A stretch of DNA of 64,000 nt from a virus (lineage: Duplodnaviria; Caudoviricetes). The notes below the pieces were generated by a model that saw only the letters and a list, made by a program, of their open reading frames with translations, had not been told where the DNA came from and ran no database searches. The first letter of the stretch is position 1, and each line of letters opens with the position of its first letter. Shown here in pieces: positions 22,545-28,706 of this stretch. A program made the position numbers and the translations under genes. Where the stretch lies: IMG/VR virus record IMGVR_UViG_3300025121_000013; one strand, written 5' to 3'.

Positions 22545-25541
22545 TCACGGCTCTATTCCGATTGCCTTTAAATATGAATATAAGAGATTTACAGATTCAG
22601 GGGAAATATTTATTTCTTCATCAAACATCGTCATTCCAGTATTTCTAATACTATTTTTAATATGTTGATTTTTTAAATCTATACAATCAGATTTTGTGGT
22701 AAACATCTCAAAAAGATTTGTGCTCGCTTCGTACCCAATCAAACTAGCGGACTCCATTTCACCACATCTTTGTCCGCCTTTATTCTTTCTTCCACCTAAC
22801 GGTTGAAGAGTTTTCTTTGTATATGAGCCGATTCCTCTGGCGGCGAGCTTATCTTCAGCAATATGTGCAATTCTAAAAAAAGTTAAAAACCCTACTGCAA
22901 CCTCATTTAAAATATCCATCTTAGAAATTGGATCAAAAACCTTATACTTAAAATTCTCATTTGTATATTTTAAAGCGTCTTCAATTCCCTTCATATCTGT
23001 TGACTCAAAAGGTGGCTGATGAACTGAAAAATTCTCTAAAAATTCTTTTTCAATATTTTCTGGAAAATTTTCAATAAATTGTTTTGTATACCAATTGCCT
23101 TCTGTTCTATCAATTATTTTAATAAACTCAATTAAAAATTCCTTTATTTTTTCCTGAGGTTCTGAATTTTTTAACATCTCTAAAGATTTCATTTTAAGGG
23201 TATTAACTGCCATCCCCAAATGAAGTTCAAATAATTGTCCAATATTCATTCTGGAAATTATTCCAAGAGGATTTATACAGATATCTAAATGTCTTCCATC
23301 TTCCAAAACAGGCATTTTTTCTTCAGGAATTATTGCTGAGATAACCCCTTTATTTCCATGTCTGTTAGCTATCTTATCTCCAACCTGGATTTTTCTAAAA
23401 AATATTCCTGACATTTCAACAAGTATACCGCTTATTCTTTCTCCCTTAATTTTATATCTTCCAGCCTGAGAAAATTTATTTAGAAAATTATCTCTAATAA
23501 TATCTTCAATATCTCTTTTTTCAAAATGATCTTTTAGAGATTCTCTAAAAATATCTTCATTTCGTATCTGTTCATTTTTAACGGTTTCAACCCATCTTGA
23601 ATATTCTGGAATTTCTTTGTTCCAATCATTTATATATAAATTGAGGTCTGTGATTATAACATTTTTATCTGTAGTTTGTTCTTCCACTTCTTCAAAAACA
23701 CTAGTAAATTCAGTTCCAGATAAAATACTTTTAGTTTTGGCATATGCTTGCCCTTTATAAATTCTTTCAAATTTTTCTGGAAGAGGTTTATATGAATTTT
23801 TTTCTAAAGATAAAAGAACTTTATTTGATGGAATATTAAAAGATAAATCTTTAAAATGAACTGAGGTAAATGAATCATCTTTTATCAATCGATCTGAAAT
23901 TACAATGCCGTCTTCATAATTATATCCATAATAAACCATAACTCCGGTCAGAAGATTTTTTCCAAAATTTATTTCACCATTTCTACAAAATAAACTCTCC
24001 GCTAAAATATCTCCTTTATTAAATGTATCTCCAACTTTCACATAAACTTTATAAATGTCTAAATTTTTTACATATATTTCTCTATGGCCAACCTCAAAAA
24101 AGTCAGGCGTTTCATCCTCATATTTTACAATTAAAATCTTTTGATCCAAATAAATTACAGTTCCTTTATTTTTTGCAGTTTTTACAAATTGAGTTTTATC
24201 GGTATATAATCCTTCACAACCTGTTTTGATTAATTGTGAATCATTATTTTTTAAAAGAATTGTTTGTCTCATTTGTGATGATGCCATTTGCAATCTCGTC
24301 TGGTCATCTCTTTCAAGAAATGGGACAAATGATACTGGGATAGAAATTGGTTGATTGCTTCTCTCTTCTGAAAATCTTAAATTATTATCTAATTTTGTAT
24401 TTATTAGAAGATTTTGTAAAACTCCACAATTTTCTCTATCTGGGGTATCAACAGGACAGATTCGATTATACATAGAGTCATTTATATCTCTCAACCCCCT
24501 TGGAACATTTTCTCTCTTAAAACCACCAGGCCCAACTAAACTGGTTCTTGATAAACTGGTTAATTCTTCAATTGGATTTATCGCAAAATCAAATTGAACA
24601 ATATCTGAAACATTACATTCAGAAATTATATGGCTAGTATTAATATTGAAATTTGGATTTCGTGTTGTTCTATTTGTAACGCATAAATCAAAAACGGCTT
24701 TAGCAACCTTTTCTAAAACAACATATTCAAAACATCTTATTCTTTTATTTCTTAAATCTAAATCATTATAAAATCCATTAATTAAAGGATAAAGAATTTC
24801 ATCTAAAACATTTTCAGTTCTGAAGAATTGGGAAGACATAATATCAACTTTTGGAATTATATCAAGAGCATATATAACATCATAACCTTTTGATTTAATA
24901 TTATATTTTGTGTAATGCCGCCCTAACATTTCCATCAAAAATTCTTCTTCAATTCCTTCATTTTCAACCTGAAATTCCTCAATATCTTTTAATAAATTTT
25001 CTGAAAAAACATTATGCTCTTTCATACCTAAAAGTTTTTGTTTTCTTTCTTCCAACTCTTTTTCAGAAAAATAGCATGCCATCAATAAAACTAAAGGGAC
25101 TTTTTTACCCAAAAAAGATGCTTTTATAAAAGGCTCTGTTTTTTCATTTATTAACATTAATGTAGAAACACAAGTTCTTAATTTAATAATTTTTCCTCTT
25201 GTCACAACAGGTAAATCGAACATTTGAAATAAAGGCATTTTCTTTCGACCGTTAATATAAAAATAATTATTATCAATTAATTTTGGAACAGACATACTTA
25301 AATCAATCGTTGAATTTCTTTTCTTCAATTTGATAATCAAATTTCGTCTCAATGTTCTATGAAGTTCACCAGAAGTAAATTTATGATCATAAAAATCCAA
25401 TTCTTCGACAATAAAATCAAGATCTCTAGCAGGTTGTAAAATTATATTAACCTTGCTAAGTATTTCATCATATTCATTTTTTCTGATTGAAAACATATTA
25501 TTTACAGGATCGTCAATCTCATAAAAAGGATTTCGAATCAT
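22545..25541 (-). CDS. rpoB: phage multisubunit RNA polymerase, beta-like subunit (set 1)
   Basis: CPVDTPDRENCG, PFLERDDQTRLQMASSQMRQ, GYNYEDG, GDKIANRHGNKG, GGQRCGEME; ATG at 25541 follows GGAGG. Confidence 0.93.
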   Translation of the reverse strand: MIRNPFYEIDDPVNNMFSIRKNEYDEILSKVNIILQPARDLDFIVEELDFYDHKFTSGELHRTLRRNLIIKLKKRNSTIDLSMSVPKLIDNNYFYINGRKKMPLFQMFDLPVVTRGKIIKLRTCVSTLMLINEKTEPFIKASFLGKKVPLVLLMACYFSEKELEERKQKLLGMKEHNVFSENLLKDIEEFQVENEGIEEEFLMEMLGRHYTKYNIKSKGYDVIYALDIIPKVDIMSSQFFRTENVLDEILYPLINGFYNDLDLRNKRIRCFEYVVLEKVAKAVFDLCVTNRTTRNPNFNINTSHIISECNVSDIVQFDFAINPIEELTSLSRTSLVGPGGFKRENVPRGLRDINDSMYNRICPVDTPDRENCGVLQNLLINTKLDNNLRFSEERSNQPISIPVSFVPFLERDDQTRLQMASSQMRQTILLKNNDSQLIKTGCEGLYTDKTQFVKTAKNKGTVIYLDQKILIVKYEDETPDFFEVGHREIYVKNLDIYKVYVKVGDTFNKGDILAESLFCRNGEINFGKNLLTGVMVYYGYNYEDGIVISDRLIKDDSFTSVHFKDLSFNIPSNKVLLSLEKNSYKPLPEKFERIYKGQAYAKTKSILSGTEFTSVFEEVEEQTTDKNVIITDLNLYINDWNKEIPEYSRWVETVKNEQIRNEDIFRESLKDHFEKRDIEDIIRDNFLNKFSQAGRYKIKGERISGILVEMSGIFFRKIQVGDKIANRHGNKGVISAIIPEEKMPVLEDGRHLDICINPLGIISRMNIGQLFELHLGMAVNTLKMKSLEMLKNSEPQEKIKEFLIEFIKIIDRTEGNWYTKQFIENFPENIEKEFLENFSVHQPPFESTDMKGIEDALKYTNENFKYKVFDPISKMDILNEVAVGFLTFFRIAHIAEDKLAARGIGSYTKKTLQPLGGRKNKGGQRCGEMESASLIGYEASTNLFEMFTTKSDCIDLKNQHIKNSIRNTGMTMFDEEINISPESVNLLYSYLKAIGIEP

Positions 25542-25560
25542 TGAATCCTCCATGAAAAAA

Positions 25561-28287
25561 TTAAACTTTTTCCCCTTTTAATATTCGGTCCATAATTCCA
25601 GTATATAAACCTTTATATACCATTCCATTTAATATGCTCTTTTTTGGATTAGAAAAAGCTAAAGCTAAAAGCCAACTTTCATAACTGGGAACCGATTGGA
25701 CACTTTTCATTTCTAAAGATTTTTTATCACGATCTTTGGTTAATCTCCATTTTTTCATTCCATGCCACATTAACTGAGAAATCACACATTCAAAATGAAC
25801 ATGATGTATTTTTCCAGAAGAGGAATATACTTTAAATAAATTATTTAAAGAATTCATAAAATTATTATCTTTAAATCTATGTAATAAATCAGAAGCGGTT
25901 TCTAAATCCCCAATAATATCCATCTGTTTCATCTCATCAATTTTTTCTTCAGATTTTTCATTAATTATAGCAGACCCAGAAGTATGGAAAGTTCTTAAAA
26001 CTAATTGAGTTCCTCTTTCACCAAGACACTGAGCCGCAACTACGCCAATAAATTTACTATTGATAATTTTGTATAAATCTCCATAACAAGTTTTACAAAT
26101 ATTTTCAGATTCACAATAAATAGGACTTCGTAGTTTTAAAGTTTTTCCAACTAAACTTTTAAAATTTAACATTGTAATTTTTTTCAATTCATTATTCTCT
26201 ATATAATTTCTGCCTATTAAAGATTTACTTTTATCTGCATTTTCAATAAAAAGTTCTATACAATCTTTAGTTCCACAATCTTCTAAATTTAAATCAAGTT
26301 GAAGATTACAACAGGTAAAAATCAACTTTCTTGAAAGATAGCCTGAGATTCCAGTATTTAATGCAACGTCTAATAAACCTTTTCGACATCCATATGTGGA
26401 TATAAAAAATTCTCTTTTGGTTAACCCATTCATTAAACTATTTTTAATTGGTTCAGGTAAAATTTGTCCTTCAAAATTTGAGATAAACCCTCTTGATAAA
26501 ACAATTTGTCTAACTTGGTCCCAAGTTCCTCTGGCTCCAGATTCAACCATATAAGAATATTTAAATATTTTCTTTAAAGTTTCTATAGTTTCATTTGAAG
26601 ATATATCTTCGATTTGTTTTCTTATATTTTCTCCTGAAAATATTTTATCTACATATTCCTTAGAATCTTTTGATGTACAATCAATTAAAGACATAGTGGT
26701 TCCGAAAATTGTTGAATATTTAAATCCCAATAATTTGATCTTATCTAAAACTATGGCTAATATTTCTTTAGAATAATTTTGTGAAATATCACTTAAGATT
26801 TTTAATAATTCATTTTTGCCTACAGAGTAATTTATTATAGGATAGTCTTCTGGAAAACACTCATTGAATAATTTTCTTCCTTCTGTGATTTTAATATTTT
26901 TAAAAATAGTTTCTTTTGTTAAATCAGGAAATTTATCATTTGTTAACATATAAATTCCCAAAATTATATCTTGATTTGGCATAGTCGCTAATTGTCCATT
27001 TGATGGACTGTTTAAATTATTTGTTATCAATAACTTATCAAGAACTTCATCTTTTGCCTCTTGAGATATTGGTAAATATACCGCCATCTGATCCCCATCA
27101 AAATCAGCATTAAATGGCTCACATGCTAAAGGGTGAATTTTTATAACATTATCTGAGGATATTTTAATTTTGAAACCAAGCATTCCTAATCTATGAAGCG
27201 TGGGTTGCCTATTTAAAATACAAACTTCACCCTTTACAATTTCTTCAGCTTCTTTATATAAATCCAAACTTTTAAGATCAATGCATCTATCAACAAAATC
27301 TATTGCCTCGTTGAGAATTTTAAAACTTTCATTATTCACTAATTTTTGTGCAATTTGAATTTTAAATAATTCTAAAATCATAACATAGGGTAAAACACAT
27401 TCGTCAATATTAATAGTTGGAGATGGGACTATTACGGCTCTCCCTGAAAAATCAATTCTTTTTCCTAAAATATTTCCTCTTATCAATCCTTCTTTTTTAG
27501 AAAGTTTTTCCAATATAAAAACATAAAGTTGATTTACAGTTTTTTGAATTTCTTTAAAATACATATAATATATCTTTTTATTTTTTTGAACTTCGACCAA
27601 AGTGTTTTCAATGATCTTTTTATTTGTTAAAAGTTGAACATAAAATCTATTTATTGGATCTGCGACAGGAACATTTTTTACCGTAGTTTTTGATGGGGGT
27701 CTTAAATCTGGAGGTAAAACAATTACTTCGTTTATTAAAATATTATTTAAATTTTCTTTTATTATATTCCAATAACTTAATTCTGGATTTTCTTCATCCT
27801 TTAAAATCTCTTTTGTAATTTGTGTAATAAATTCTTTTATTGCCTCAGTTTTTTCAAAAAATATTTTTTCTTTAGGGATGCTTTCAATATCTGTGGTTAT
27901 AACAAATTCTCCATTATCATCTTTATATAAAATACTTTTATCATTTTTCATTAACATAGAAATCATTTCTTTAACTTTCTTTCCGCCAACAAAACTTAAT
28001 AGTTCAAAAAACATTGGATTTACAATTGGAAAAGGCAAAACAATTTTTCCAAATCTTCTTCTTCTTACATTACTATTAACTATGTCAACATTACAAATAT
28101 TACATTTTCCTCCGGATTTTGAAACGCCCCTATAAATTTTACATTGACATGTATAATTTCTTATTGGTCCAAAAAGTTGTTCTGAAAAAAGGCCATTTGG
28201 ATGAAATTTTTTCTTATCAATAATCTCAAATGTAGTTACCTCTGGAAGATTTTCACAAAACTTAGAAATATCTAAGAGTTTGGGCAT
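25561..28287 (-). CDS. rpoC: phage multisubunit RNA polymerase, beta'-like subunit (set 1)
   Basis: N-terminal Zn ribbon, VLPPDLRP, LGKRIDFSGRAV, LNRQPTLH, NADFDGDQM active site, GYLSRKL, QLVLRTFH. Confidence 0.95.
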   Translation of the reverse strand: MPKLLDISKFCENLPEVTTFEIIDKKKFHPNGLFSEQLFGPIRNYTCQCKIYRGVSKSGGKCNICNVDIVNSNVRRRRFGKIVLPFPIVNPMFFELLSFVGGKKVKEMISMLMKNDKSILYKDDNGEFVITTDIESIPKEKIFFEKTEAIKEFITQITKEILKDEENPELSYWNIIKENLNNILINEVIVLPPDLRPPSKTTVKNVPVADPINRFYVQLLTNKKIIENTLVEVQKNKKIYYMYFKEIQKTVNQLYVFILEKLSKKEGLIRGNILGKRIDFSGRAVIVPSPTINIDECVLPYVMILELFKIQIAQKLVNNESFKILNEAIDFVDRCIDLKSLDLYKEAEEIVKGEVCILNRQPTLHRLGMLGFKIKISSDNVIKIHPLACEPFNADFDGDQMAVYLPISQEAKDEVLDKLLITNNLNSPSNGQLATMPNQDIILGIYMLTNDKFPDLTKETIFKNIKITEGRKLFNECFPEDYPIINYSVGKNELLKILSDISQNYSKEILAIVLDKIKLLGFKYSTIFGTTMSLIDCTSKDSKEYVDKIFSGENIRKQIEDISSNETIETLKKIFKYSYMVESGARGTWDQVRQIVLSRGFISNFEGQILPEPIKNSLMNGLTKREFFISTYGCRKGLLDVALNTGISGYLSRKLIFTCCNLQLDLNLEDCGTKDCIELFIENADKSKSLIGRNYIENNELKKITMLNFKSLVGKTLKLRSPIYCESENICKTCYGDLYKIINSKFIGVVAAQCLGERGTQLVLRTFHTSGSAIINEKSEEKIDEMKQMDIIGDLETASDLLHRFKDNNFMNSLNNLFKVYSSSGKIHHVHFECVISQLMWHGMKKWRLTKDRDKKSLEMKSVQSVPSYESWLLALAFSNPKKSILNGMVYKGLYTGIMDRILKGEKV

Positions 28288-28706
28288 TGATCCTCCACAA
28301 TATATATTTTTGGTTTGTGTGTTACCTTTTCATATTTAAGATAAATAGCTTTATCTATAAAATAACTATTATCCAAATTATGTATTGAAATAAACCGATT
28401 CTCTATTATGTTTAAAAATTTTTCGTTAAAATGTTTTCCAATAAAAGGCTTAGGTAAACATAATAAACCAGAATATAAATCAGCGTTCGGATGAACACCA
28501 CATAAAATAATTGATAGAATTCTTTGATCTATCACCCTAACATAATAACCATTAATAATATATGGCAAATCTATTTCTAATATTTTAAAATATTCATTAT
28601 TCAAAATAAAATAAGAAGGAATAATTTTTTTATTTATCTTCTCAATTTTTATTTTAGAATCTTTGTTTATAACTATCGCTCCATTTTGAAGGATGATATC
28701 ATTCAT
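28272..28706 (-). CDS. putative E2/UBC-like protein
   Basis: VHPNADLYSGLLCLP matches the E2 signature HPN-x(3-5)-G-x-(I/L)-C-L; next to E1 and Ubl genes. Confidence 0.55.
   Translation of the reverse strand: MNDIILQNGAIVINKDSKIKIEKINKKIIPSYFILNNEYFKILEIDLPYIINGYYVRVIDQRILSIILCGVHPNADLYSGLLCLPKPFIGKHFNEKFLNIIENRFISIHNLDNSYFIDKAIYLKYEKVTHKPKIYIVEDQCPNS

Follow-up and report, generated by a model that had tools for sequence, protein, structure and literature searches.

The window analysed here, the whole 64,000-nt stretch of IMG/VR virus record IMGVR_UViG_3300025121_000013 (Caudoviricetes), carries on its minus strand a cassette holding all the parts of a ubiquitin-like (Ubl) conjugation pathway, with a ThiF-type E1, a JAB protease and a Ubl ending in Gly, followed by a small ORF, here called mini-E2, which abuts the genes of a phage RNA polymerase (Table 1). 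The genes are laid out as two modules: the large E2_D-like, JAB, ThiF230 and Ubl genes lie on one side of a hairpin, and the genes for a TM protein (the 212-aa protein), E1b and mini-E2 on the other. Read from its sequence, the hairpin is terminator-like and may separate two transcription units. A literature search found no description of this phage cassette.

Table 1. Features of the conjugation cassette and of the adjoining RNA polymerase genes, in order of position in the window.
Feature	Position	Strand	Remarks
RNAP beta	22545-25553	minus	with beta', a phage multisubunit RNAP directly downstream of mini-E2
RNAP beta'	25561-28287	minus	Pfam RNA_pol_Rpb1_2, E = 1.5e-34; also domains 3, 4 and 5
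mini-E2 ('E2s'), subject of this analysis	28272..28706	minus	144 aa; ATG start; conserved core residues ~19-128
C83 codon, predicted thioester-forming cysteine	28458-28460	minus	read from sequence
H72-P73-N74 codons (HPN triad)	28485-28493	minus	read from sequence
E1b, ThiF-family protein	28703..29590	minus	295 aa; translationally coupled to mini-E2; family profile
212-aa protein with N-terminal hydrophobic helix	29587..30225	minus	first gene after the hairpin; 4-nt overlap with E1b
GC-rich hairpin	30248..30266	minus	six G-C pairs; CUUCGG loop region; directly after the Ubl stop
Ubl	30282..30719	minus	Rho_N/HeH domain and beta-grasp-like C-terminal part; end …GRKG-F
ThiF230, canonical E1-like adenylating enzyme	30805..31497	minus	ThiF, E = 3.3e-20
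JAB/MPN metalloprotease-like protein	31494..32609	minus	371 aa; Prok-JAB, E = 2.9e-5, 24.4 bits against a cut-off of 25
Two paralogous large proteins, 814 and 785 aa	32609..37410	minus	N-terminal Prok-E2_D-like region in each

Within the first module, the NxxRQ and VDNHxxR motifs of ThiF230 and C168 in its MSCEEL loop are all invariant, the JAB protein is likely to be the Ubl-processing and deconjugating enzyme, and the Ubl of relatives ends either in …KG or with one extra residue. The Prok-E2_D-like region of the large proteins carries an invariant Asn and Cys eight residues apart (N159 and C167; PxN…C), scoring 24.5 and 18.2 bits against Prok-E2_D, below the Pfam cut-off of 25; a profile of this domain matched no chain in the PDB.

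For mini-E2, the initial annotation had reported an HPN…Cys signature and a 16-nt overlap with the start of beta', and both are borne out by the sequence. The translation reads V71-H72-P73-N74 … S79-G80-L81-L82-C83-L84-P85, and the ORF overlaps the beta' ORF by 16 nt at one end and the upstream E1b ORF by 4 nt at the other. Relatives were found via the conserved beta' neighbour, followed by local phmmer/hmmsearch: of the 77 related huge-phage loci whose upstream DNA could be read, 74 carry a homolog at this position, and 92 cluster representatives of the family were found in a library of 1.8 billion proteins. Such conservation marks it as a real gene that is maintained by selection. A 147-sequence alignment has a mean column identity of 15%, against which H72 and C83 (each 147/147), N74 (146/147) and P73 (144/147) are retained among stand-alone members, the His-to-Cys spacing being 11 residues in 127 of the 147 homologs. 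C83, on whose conservation the proposed E2 identity had been made to depend, is thus invariant, and in the alignment the HPN…C motif is more than chance. Further conserved columns follow C83 (P85, N110, L111, D112, C114, Y115, F116 and P118), HPH replaces HPN in one distant subclade, and the ends (~18 N-terminal and ~16 C-terminal residues) are poorly conserved and modelled with low pLDDT. A word-indexed homolog search with mini-E2 returned only the query, tblastn of GenBank phages gave no match to it, and peptide-pattern scans of viral contigs with mini-E2 or E1b gave none. The window protein matches no Pfam or PHROG family, and because neither collection has a model of the family, its members are annotated 'hypothetical' everywhere.

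Assignment to a known superfamily was approached through sequence profiles. Searched against the PDB, the family profile of mini-E2 recovered only two chains, Pex4 (5nkz) and UBE2U (1yrv), both of them E2s, at E-values of 0.2 and 1.4, and the HMMER alignments place HPN on HPN and C83 on the catalytic-Cys position. The initial annotation had pointed to the UQ_con and Prok-E2 profiles; of these, only the first found an echo. UQ_con turns up in the members more often than any other Pfam family, albeit below threshold (6/147, best E = 0.0033; top bit score 16.6 at E = 0.0059, against a gathering threshold of 27), and one member aligns from its HPN region on, over positions 70-129 of the 140-position profile. 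The window protein itself did not match UQ_con (PF00179) or, at E ≤ 1, any of the Prok-E2 families A–E (PF14457 to PF14462), nor do the 25 Pfam families that recur most among the 147 members include any Prok-E2 family. Kinship of mini-E2 with the Prok-E2_D-like domain at the N-terminus of the large proteins likewise found no support (hhalign probability 1.9%), in agreement with the earlier description, which set mini-E2 apart, as a canonical-type (HPN…Cys) E2-like protein, from the Prok-E2_D-like proteins upstream.

Structure prediction points in the same direction. The AlphaFold2 model of mini-E2 built with the alignment has a pLDDT of 88.4 and a pTM of 0.79 and proceeds from a beta-meander through the HPN loop and Cys83 to a helix at residues 95-106; the predicted structure shows the elements of a UBC core, namely an antiparallel beta-meander, the active-site loop and helix α2. 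DSSP assigns helices only at residues 95-106 and 113-116; the N-terminus of the model is strand or coil, C-terminal strands span residues 108-110 and 122-128, and helices α1, α3 and α4 are missing. The single-sequence prediction reached a pLDDT of only 33 and the Atlas's own model one of 0.38. In a Foldseek search of the PDB, the ten best matches of the model were all E2s, each with E ≥ 0.2, and in a VIA structural search of all PDB representatives the best 16 rows were E2 or E2-variant chains, led by 1yrv (Z 5.0, rmsd 5.3 Å over 101 residues), where a Z below 8 may reflect merely a common arrangement. E2s filled 48 of 50 rows in a second VIA look at the PDB, the two nearest ESM-Atlas shapes were UQ_con clusters (TM 0.49 and 0.46), and Foldseek against BFVD gave no meaningful viral match. 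The best matches of the model are therefore UBC folds, as the initial annotation had anticipated, and since their magnitudes are weak, the assignment rests on the consistency of the matches and on no single score.

Taken singly, each homology signal is sub-threshold. A protein of other function, in which both HPN…C and the weak resemblance in fold had arisen by coincidence, would account for the absence of any score that passes a significance threshold. We nevertheless regard such a small, E2-unrelated phage protein as very improbable, as five partly independent searches (PDB profile, Pfam per member, Foldseek, VIA-align on all PDB representatives and ESM-Atlas shape) agree on the superfamily and on the aligned active-site residues, and as the gene stands in an E1/Ubl/JAB cassette.

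Compared with canonical UBC E2s (UQ_con PF00179; UBE2U 1yrv, Pex4 5nkz/2y9m and UBE2D/UbcH5), mini-E2 has the same HPN triad with a Cys 10-11 residues further on, the 11-residue His-to-Cys spacing recurring in 1yrv and 5nkz over the stretches that align with it, and its model likewise places a beta-meander before the active-site loop and a helix after it. An account of the part that HPN plays is given in PMC11354881. The phage protein differs in its conserved core of only ~110 residues, which lacks α1, α3 and α4 and scores below the Pfam cut-off, as well as in being phage-encoded and paired with small ThiF-type E1s, whereas canonical E2s work with a multidomain E1 bearing a UFD. A eukaryotic HPN…Cys signature is thus retained in a core that has lost helices for E1 and E3 contact. 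In canonical E2s, α1 forms the E1- and E3-binding surface; because the mini-E2 model is without it, E1 recognition would have to differ.

The obvious partner is E1b, to which the initial annotation had described mini-E2 as coupled. The coupling is conserved, the mini-E2 start lying within 30 nt of the E1b stop in 72 of 73 related loci and usually overlapping it, but the ThiF identity of E1b is visible only via its family profile. The window's E1b alone gave no Pfam match, and it is the one exception among 40 listed database relatives, the other 39 of which match PF00899. The profile matches MoeB (E = 1.1e-13), ThiF, MccB, Cap2, UBA5 and UBA3, and aligns with the ThiF230 family at an hhalign probability of 97%; judged by these comparisons, E1b is a true ThiF-family protein. 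It keeps GxGxxG, D35, K56 and the DCxD motif, with the ATP-site residues G10, G12, G15, D35, K56, D99 and D102 retained and R107 present in 63 of 66 sequences. The NLxRQ arginine is lost (family consensus NLxNS, the window copy being more degenerate), and E1b is without a conserved crossover-loop Cys, its well-conserved cysteines being only C100 (in DCxD) and C125 (54/66). All 66 aligned sequences end at the same C-terminal position (G293 in 63/66 and A295 in 65/66), the tail having the form …ETG(A/G)A and the last residues in nearly all being …TG(A/G)A, and this shared end and conserved tail suggest that a free E1b carboxylate matters. Prediction of a complex of E1b with mini-E2 scored 0.30 against a mark of 0.32, which counts neither for nor against their pairing.

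On the combined evidence, ORF 28272-28706 is probably a minimal UBC-type, thioester-carrying E2 of a phage-borne Ubl conjugation system and, because a mini-E2 with intact HPN…Cys is paired with E1b in a Ubl cassette, these phages probably tag proteins themselves. In the pathway we envisage, the JAB protease would trim the one-residue cap (F145) off the Rho_N-Ubl and expose its terminal Gly, which the ThiF-type E1 machinery would then adenylate, ThiF230 having intact ATP-site motifs and the invariant loop Cys168. The degenerate E1b would probably act as the partner subunit of ThiF230 in a heterodimeric E1 and as the E2-docking subunit; the Ubl would pass as a thioester to Cys83 of mini-E2, and N74, the HPN asparagine, would aid its discharge onto target lysines. 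Because the cassette also holds the large Prok-E2_D-like protein, mini-E2 need not be the E2 of the Rho_N-Ubl.

The initial annotation had instead read E1b and mini-E2 as a second E1-E2 branch. Here E1b would adenylate a C-terminus different from that handled by ThiF230 and hand it directly to Cys83, the large Prok-E2_D-like protein serving ThiF230; the substrate could be the same Ubl destined for other targets, or E1b's own …ETG(A/G)A tail, in the manner of Cap2 and cGAS. The presence of two E1-like genes and two kinds of E2-like genes with a hairpin between the modules speaks for such an arrangement, as do the conserved E1b-E2 coupling, the retention of most E1b ATP-site residues and the strict conservation of the E1b end position and tail. 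Yet a single recognisable Ubl gene is present in the cassette, the two modules were never found apart in the loci examined, and E1b lacks both the NLxRQ arginine and the conserved crossover-loop Cys that ThiF230 has. Nor did profile comparison point to a second modifier within E1b: its last 100 residues, considered as a fused Ubl, show no profile similarity to the cassette Ubl (hhalign probability 0.1%) and match no PDB chain by profile, and a search for E1b-E2 fusion proteins as Rosetta-stone evidence found none. We therefore consider a separate branch unlikely; a split two-subunit E1 feeding mini-E2 fits at least as well.

To our knowledge, bacterial E1/E2/Ubl conjugation has so far been characterised as anti-phage host defence, in Bil, CBASS Cap2 and Bub, whose E2s either have no eukaryotic HPN triad or rely on a different chemistry. 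The phage cassette, as read here, would place the tagging machinery in uncultured huge phages themselves, across a large clade. If active, it would make phages users of ubiquitin-like tagging as well as its targets, provide a minimal E2 scaffold informative about the catalytic requirements of the UBC core, and add a data point on the spread of HPN-type E2s outside eukaryotes and archaea.

The closest parts list is that of type II BilABCD (Chambers et al., PMC10557695), which comprises a Ubl with a one-residue cap, a JAB DUB, an E1 with an inactive and an active adenylation domain and a Cys-dependent E2, BilB, of roughly UBC fold. The motif of BilB is CEHH, not HPN (PMC10557695), and mini-E2 has no conserved Glu or His after C83. 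BilD is a single chain (IAD, AAD and CYS domain), whereas the phage has two separate ThiF-like proteins; its Ubl carries an extra Rho_N/HeH domain, and the cassette contains the additional large Prok-E2_D-like protein. Bil is a host anti-phage defence, in contrast to a cassette carried by the phage. CBASS Cap2/Cap3 (PMC10097602) similarly combines a ThiF-type E1, a minimal E2 and a JAB protease, and the E1 domain of Cap2 is among the matches of the E1b family profile (E ~1e-9). In Cap2, E2 and E1 are fused in one chain that conjugates the cGAS C-terminus (PMC10097602); the phage cassette has no nucleotidyltransferase, and no such fusion was found. In the Bub system (Ye et al., PMC11601596), bacteria likewise have E1, E2 and Ubl components, in diverged form, which work through oxyester (Ser) intermediates with an E1 that lacks a catalytic Cys, whereas mini-E2 has an invariant Cys; BubCD-BubB is among the weak structural matches of mini-E2 (9eav_D, Z 3.5), and the E1b profile matches BubCD at E = 3e-4. 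The E2-superfamily Asn and Cys eight residues apart of the Prok-E2_D/PRTRC-type E2-like proteins (PF14460) are present in the 814- and 785-aa proteins of the cassette, which, at ~800 aa, lack the His of HPN and have no detectable profile similarity to mini-E2.

Anti-phage bacterial Ubl systems (PMC10557695; 10.1101/2023.09.04.556158) also give phages a motive for counter-measures, and a UBC-like fold could be put to non-conjugating use, as a UEV-like adaptor or regulator docked, for example, on E1b or the Ubl, or as a decoy or inhibitor of a host Bil, CBASS-Cap2 or Bub-type defence. A model without α1, α3 and α4 would suit such a role. Cys-less copies do exist, as the N-terminal halves of the tandem proteins P0022 and P0078, while the fused homolog P0010 has Asp at the catalytic Cys position, and two lineages appear to manage without mini-E2 (it was not seen within the fetched flank at loci L056 and L071, where E1b is kept). 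These Cys-less copies, however, never occur by themselves but as part of a fusion or alongside a partner, and among the stand-alone members the unbroken conservation of the Cys, with HPN equally conserved, is the pattern expected for catalysis and not for a scaffold. Since mini-E2 also sits inside a complete phage-borne E1/Ubl/JAB set, a purely non-conjugating function appears quite unlikely.

A more ambitious form of the preferred conjugating-E2 reading is a clade-wide, eukaryote-like cascade, in which a split E1, the HPN mini-E2, a JAB DUB and a Ubl with a nucleic-acid-binding HeH domain would attach this DNA- or RNA-binding tag to the phage RNAP or to host proteins, reprogramming transcription or disarming host defences. 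We regard this scheme as speculative and rather unlikely, and are similarly doubtful of the analogy it would imply between the split E1 (active ThiF230 with degenerate E1b) and UBA3-NAE1. If true, it would be the first protein-tagging system of a virus of bacteria with a canonical E2 active site.

The RNA polymerase had been put forward as a possible target on the strength of the overlap with beta', and this suggestion loses its footing among the relatives. Gene order from a WYL-like gene to GCHY-1 is conserved across the clade and, because the whole region keeps its order, adjacency alone is silent on the target. The small ORFs that relatives carry between mini-E2 and beta' belong to no Pfam family, and the window contains no homolog of them. 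Abutment on or overlap with beta' occurs in only 8 of the 74 relatives, and in the other 66 the two genes are separated by a gap of 150 nt or more containing one or two of these ORFs.

The mini-E2 protein studied here carries the active-site stretch V-H72-P73-N74-A-D-L-Y-S-G-L-L-C83-L-P, which confirms in translation the HPN…G.LC signature reported in the initial annotation. Its ORF shares 4 nt with the upstream 295-aa ORF (E1b, a ThiF-like protein) and, as originally described, 16 nt with the downstream rpoC-like gene, a 908-aa ORF identified as multisubunit RNA polymerase (RNAP) beta' (Pfam Rpb1 domains 2–5, E down to 1.5e-34). The source IMG/VR record spans 125.6 kb, with an estimated completeness of ~40% and a GC content of ~27%. 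Pfam and PHROG contained no family for this mini-E2, and word-indexed search returned no relative beyond an identical protein encoded on a 274-kb contig, with none in GenBank phages.

Coordinates of mini-E2, its cassette and related intervening ORFs (window positions unless a locus prefix is given)
Feature	Position	Strand	Description
mini-E2	28272..28706	minus	ATG start, 144 aa
E1b C-terminus	28703-28720	minus	conserved terminal residues
212-aa protein	between GC hairpin and E1b	minus	N-terminal hydrophobic helix
GC hairpin	30248-30266	minus	perfect six G-C pairs, GGGGGG…CCCCCC, CUUCGG-type loop
Ubl (Rho_N-Ubl)	30282-30719	minus	62% GC
785-aa + 814-aa tandem paralogs	32609-37410	minus	Prok-E2_D-like N-terminal region, sub-threshold
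Intervening small ORFs, examples	L009:7542-7989, L017:7542-7995		between mini-E2 and beta'

Across 80 related viral loci collected through the conserved beta' (beta' identity 52–59%), a mini-E2 homolog was detected in 69 by phmmer and in 74 by profile HMM. The six loci without a match comprise three truncated upstream, L076, which lacks the entire cassette, and L056 and L071. The last two retain E1b with no mini-E2 in the fetched flank (L056:768-2057; L071:6692-7998), and a small helical ORF directly follows E1b in both. Exhaustive phmmer searching of 1.8 billion cluster representatives yielded 92 matches, all without annotation. In the resulting alignment of 147 mini-E2 sequences, mean column identity is 15%; H72 and C83, the cysteine on whose conservation the initial annotation had made its E2 reading depend, are invariant, P73 and N74 occur in 144 and 146 sequences, respectively, and a His-to-Cys spacing of 11 is shared by 127 of the 147. 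His-Pro-His replaces His-Pro-Asn before the Cys in a distant subclade (L081, L088:7637-8098, L090:7810-8229 and L051), in two members of which, L088 and L090, the mini-E2 gene again overlaps beta'. Two proteins, P0022 (L082:3546-4259) and P0078, are tandem duplications whose first copy lacks the Cys and is UEV-like, an arrangement of a Cys-less and a second copy that recalls Mms2-Ubc13. A 300-aa fusion, P0010, joins a mini-E2 copy with Asp in place of Cys to a further C-terminal domain.

Five lines of evidence point the same way, to an E2 identity, each one alone falling below significance. Searched against all PDB sequences, the alignment profile matched two chains only, Pex4 (5nkz, E = 0.2) and UBE2U (1yrv, E = 1.4), both E2s and both aligned HPN-to-HPN and Cys-to-Cys. 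Of the UQ_con and Prok-E2 profiles proposed for checking, UQ_con was the most recurrent Pfam family in a member-by-member scan (6/147, best E = 0.0033), whereas no Prok-E2 family was among the 25 most recurrent, and the window protein itself matched none at E ≤ 1; the L054 homolog aligned to UQ_con positions 70–129 of 140, a stretch starting at the HPN region, and scored 16.6 bits where the cut-off is 27, and because this threshold is not reached mini-E2 is not assignable to UQ_con. AF2, supplied with the alignment, gave a confident model (pLDDT 88.4, pTM 0.79), in which five strands (19–24, 32–35, 38–45, 54–59 and 62–68) precede the HPN/Cys loop, followed by a helix (95–106) and two further strands. 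E2s ranked first in structure searches, with weak scores: Foldseek against the PDB placed them at the top, yet with E ≥ 0.2, and re-examination of its list found E2s in 48/50 rows (best Z 4.8). In a VIA-align comparison with 48,161 PDB representatives, the 16 top-ranked rows were all E2 or E2-variant chains (1yrv highest, Z 5.0), and the ESM-Atlas shape comparison had two UQ_con clusters as its nearest matches, with TM values (by query) of 0.49 and 0.46. Unlike canonical E2s, the model lacks α1, α3 and α4. From sequence and model together, we conclude that mini-E2 is of UBC type, minimal and highly diverged, and has a predicted canonical-type catalytic site. The conserved columns rule out a Bil-type E2 (CEHH motif), and Pfam scans and hhalign comparison rule out Prok-E2_A-E membership.

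The two ThiF/E1-like proteins of the cassette differ in their equipment. ThiF230 carries all adenylation motifs (NxxRQ, VDNHxxR) and an invariant loop Cys168. E1b belongs, by sequence, to the ThiF family: its family profile matches MoeB over the first ~107 residues (E = 1.1e-13) and the ThiF230 family by hhalign (97%), its ESM-feature score to ThiF clusters is 0.93, and PF00899 occurs in all but the window's own E1b among the 40 database relatives listed. It retains GxGxxG, D35, K56 and DCxD; NLxRQ is replaced by NLxNS, and the crossover loop has no conserved Cys. The claimed coupling to mini-E2 holds, with E1b stop and mini-E2 start lying within 30 nt in 72/73 loci, mostly with a 1–4 nt overlap, the pattern expected of two proteins made and used together. 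This pair could form an independent branch, as first proposed, possibly acting on the E1b tail; the tail ends at the same aligned stop position in 66/66 members, nearly always as …ETG(A/G)A (G293 63/66, A295 65/66), and such a strictly conserved free C-terminus suggests that the tail itself is a substrate or an active-site plug, although no similarity to Ubl was detectable in its C-terminal part. A single cascade through ThiF230/E1b to mini-E2 is nevertheless favoured, because a fully equipped ThiF230 alongside a degenerate E1b parallels type II Bil and eukaryotic E1s, each of which pairs one inactive with one active adenylation module (PMC10557695). In this single cascade, Ubl would be matured by JAB, adenylated and bound as a thioester on ThiF230, with E1b as its partner or E2-docking subunit, then handed to Cys83 of mini-E2 and passed to target lysines, N74 assisting discharge (the role of HPN in E2s is described in PMC11354881).

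The suggestion that RNAP is the target found no support beyond adjacency, mini-E2 abutting beta' in only 8/74 relatives. In the other 66 the gap is at least 150 nt and contains one or two small ORFs; gene order is kept across the entire region, so the neighbourhood carries little information on the target. These intervening ORFs (~72–90 aa) are charged, helical and conserved, and have neither a Pfam family nor a homolog within the window.

E1/E2/Ubl/JAB systems are known as a kind; new here are the phage-borne setting, an HPN-type mini-E2 predicted to lack α1, α3 and α4, and its tie to a degenerate ThiF. Literature searches found no paper describing this phage cassette.

All cassette genes lie on the minus strand, transcribed in the order 785-aa and 814-aa paralogs, JAB, ThiF230, Rho_N-Ubl, GC hairpin, 212-aa protein, E1b, mini-E2, beta' and beta, an order conserved in ~70 related loci and in more distant relatives. 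The Prok-E2_D-like region of the large paralogs has invariant Asn159 and Cys167, 8 residues apart, and their long C-terminal parts received no family assignment; most relatives encode a single ~850-aa copy, compared with two in this phage. Ubl ends in …KG, or one residue beyond, in nearly all relatives, and its gene belongs to the conserved core of the clade despite extreme compositional deviation from the genome (~25% GC) and from its neighbours (23–31% GC). The hairpin lies 16 nt past the Ubl stop, is followed by a weak T-tract, and may be a terminator or RNA-stabilising element that sets the Ubl module apart from the module formed by E1b, E2 and RNAP.
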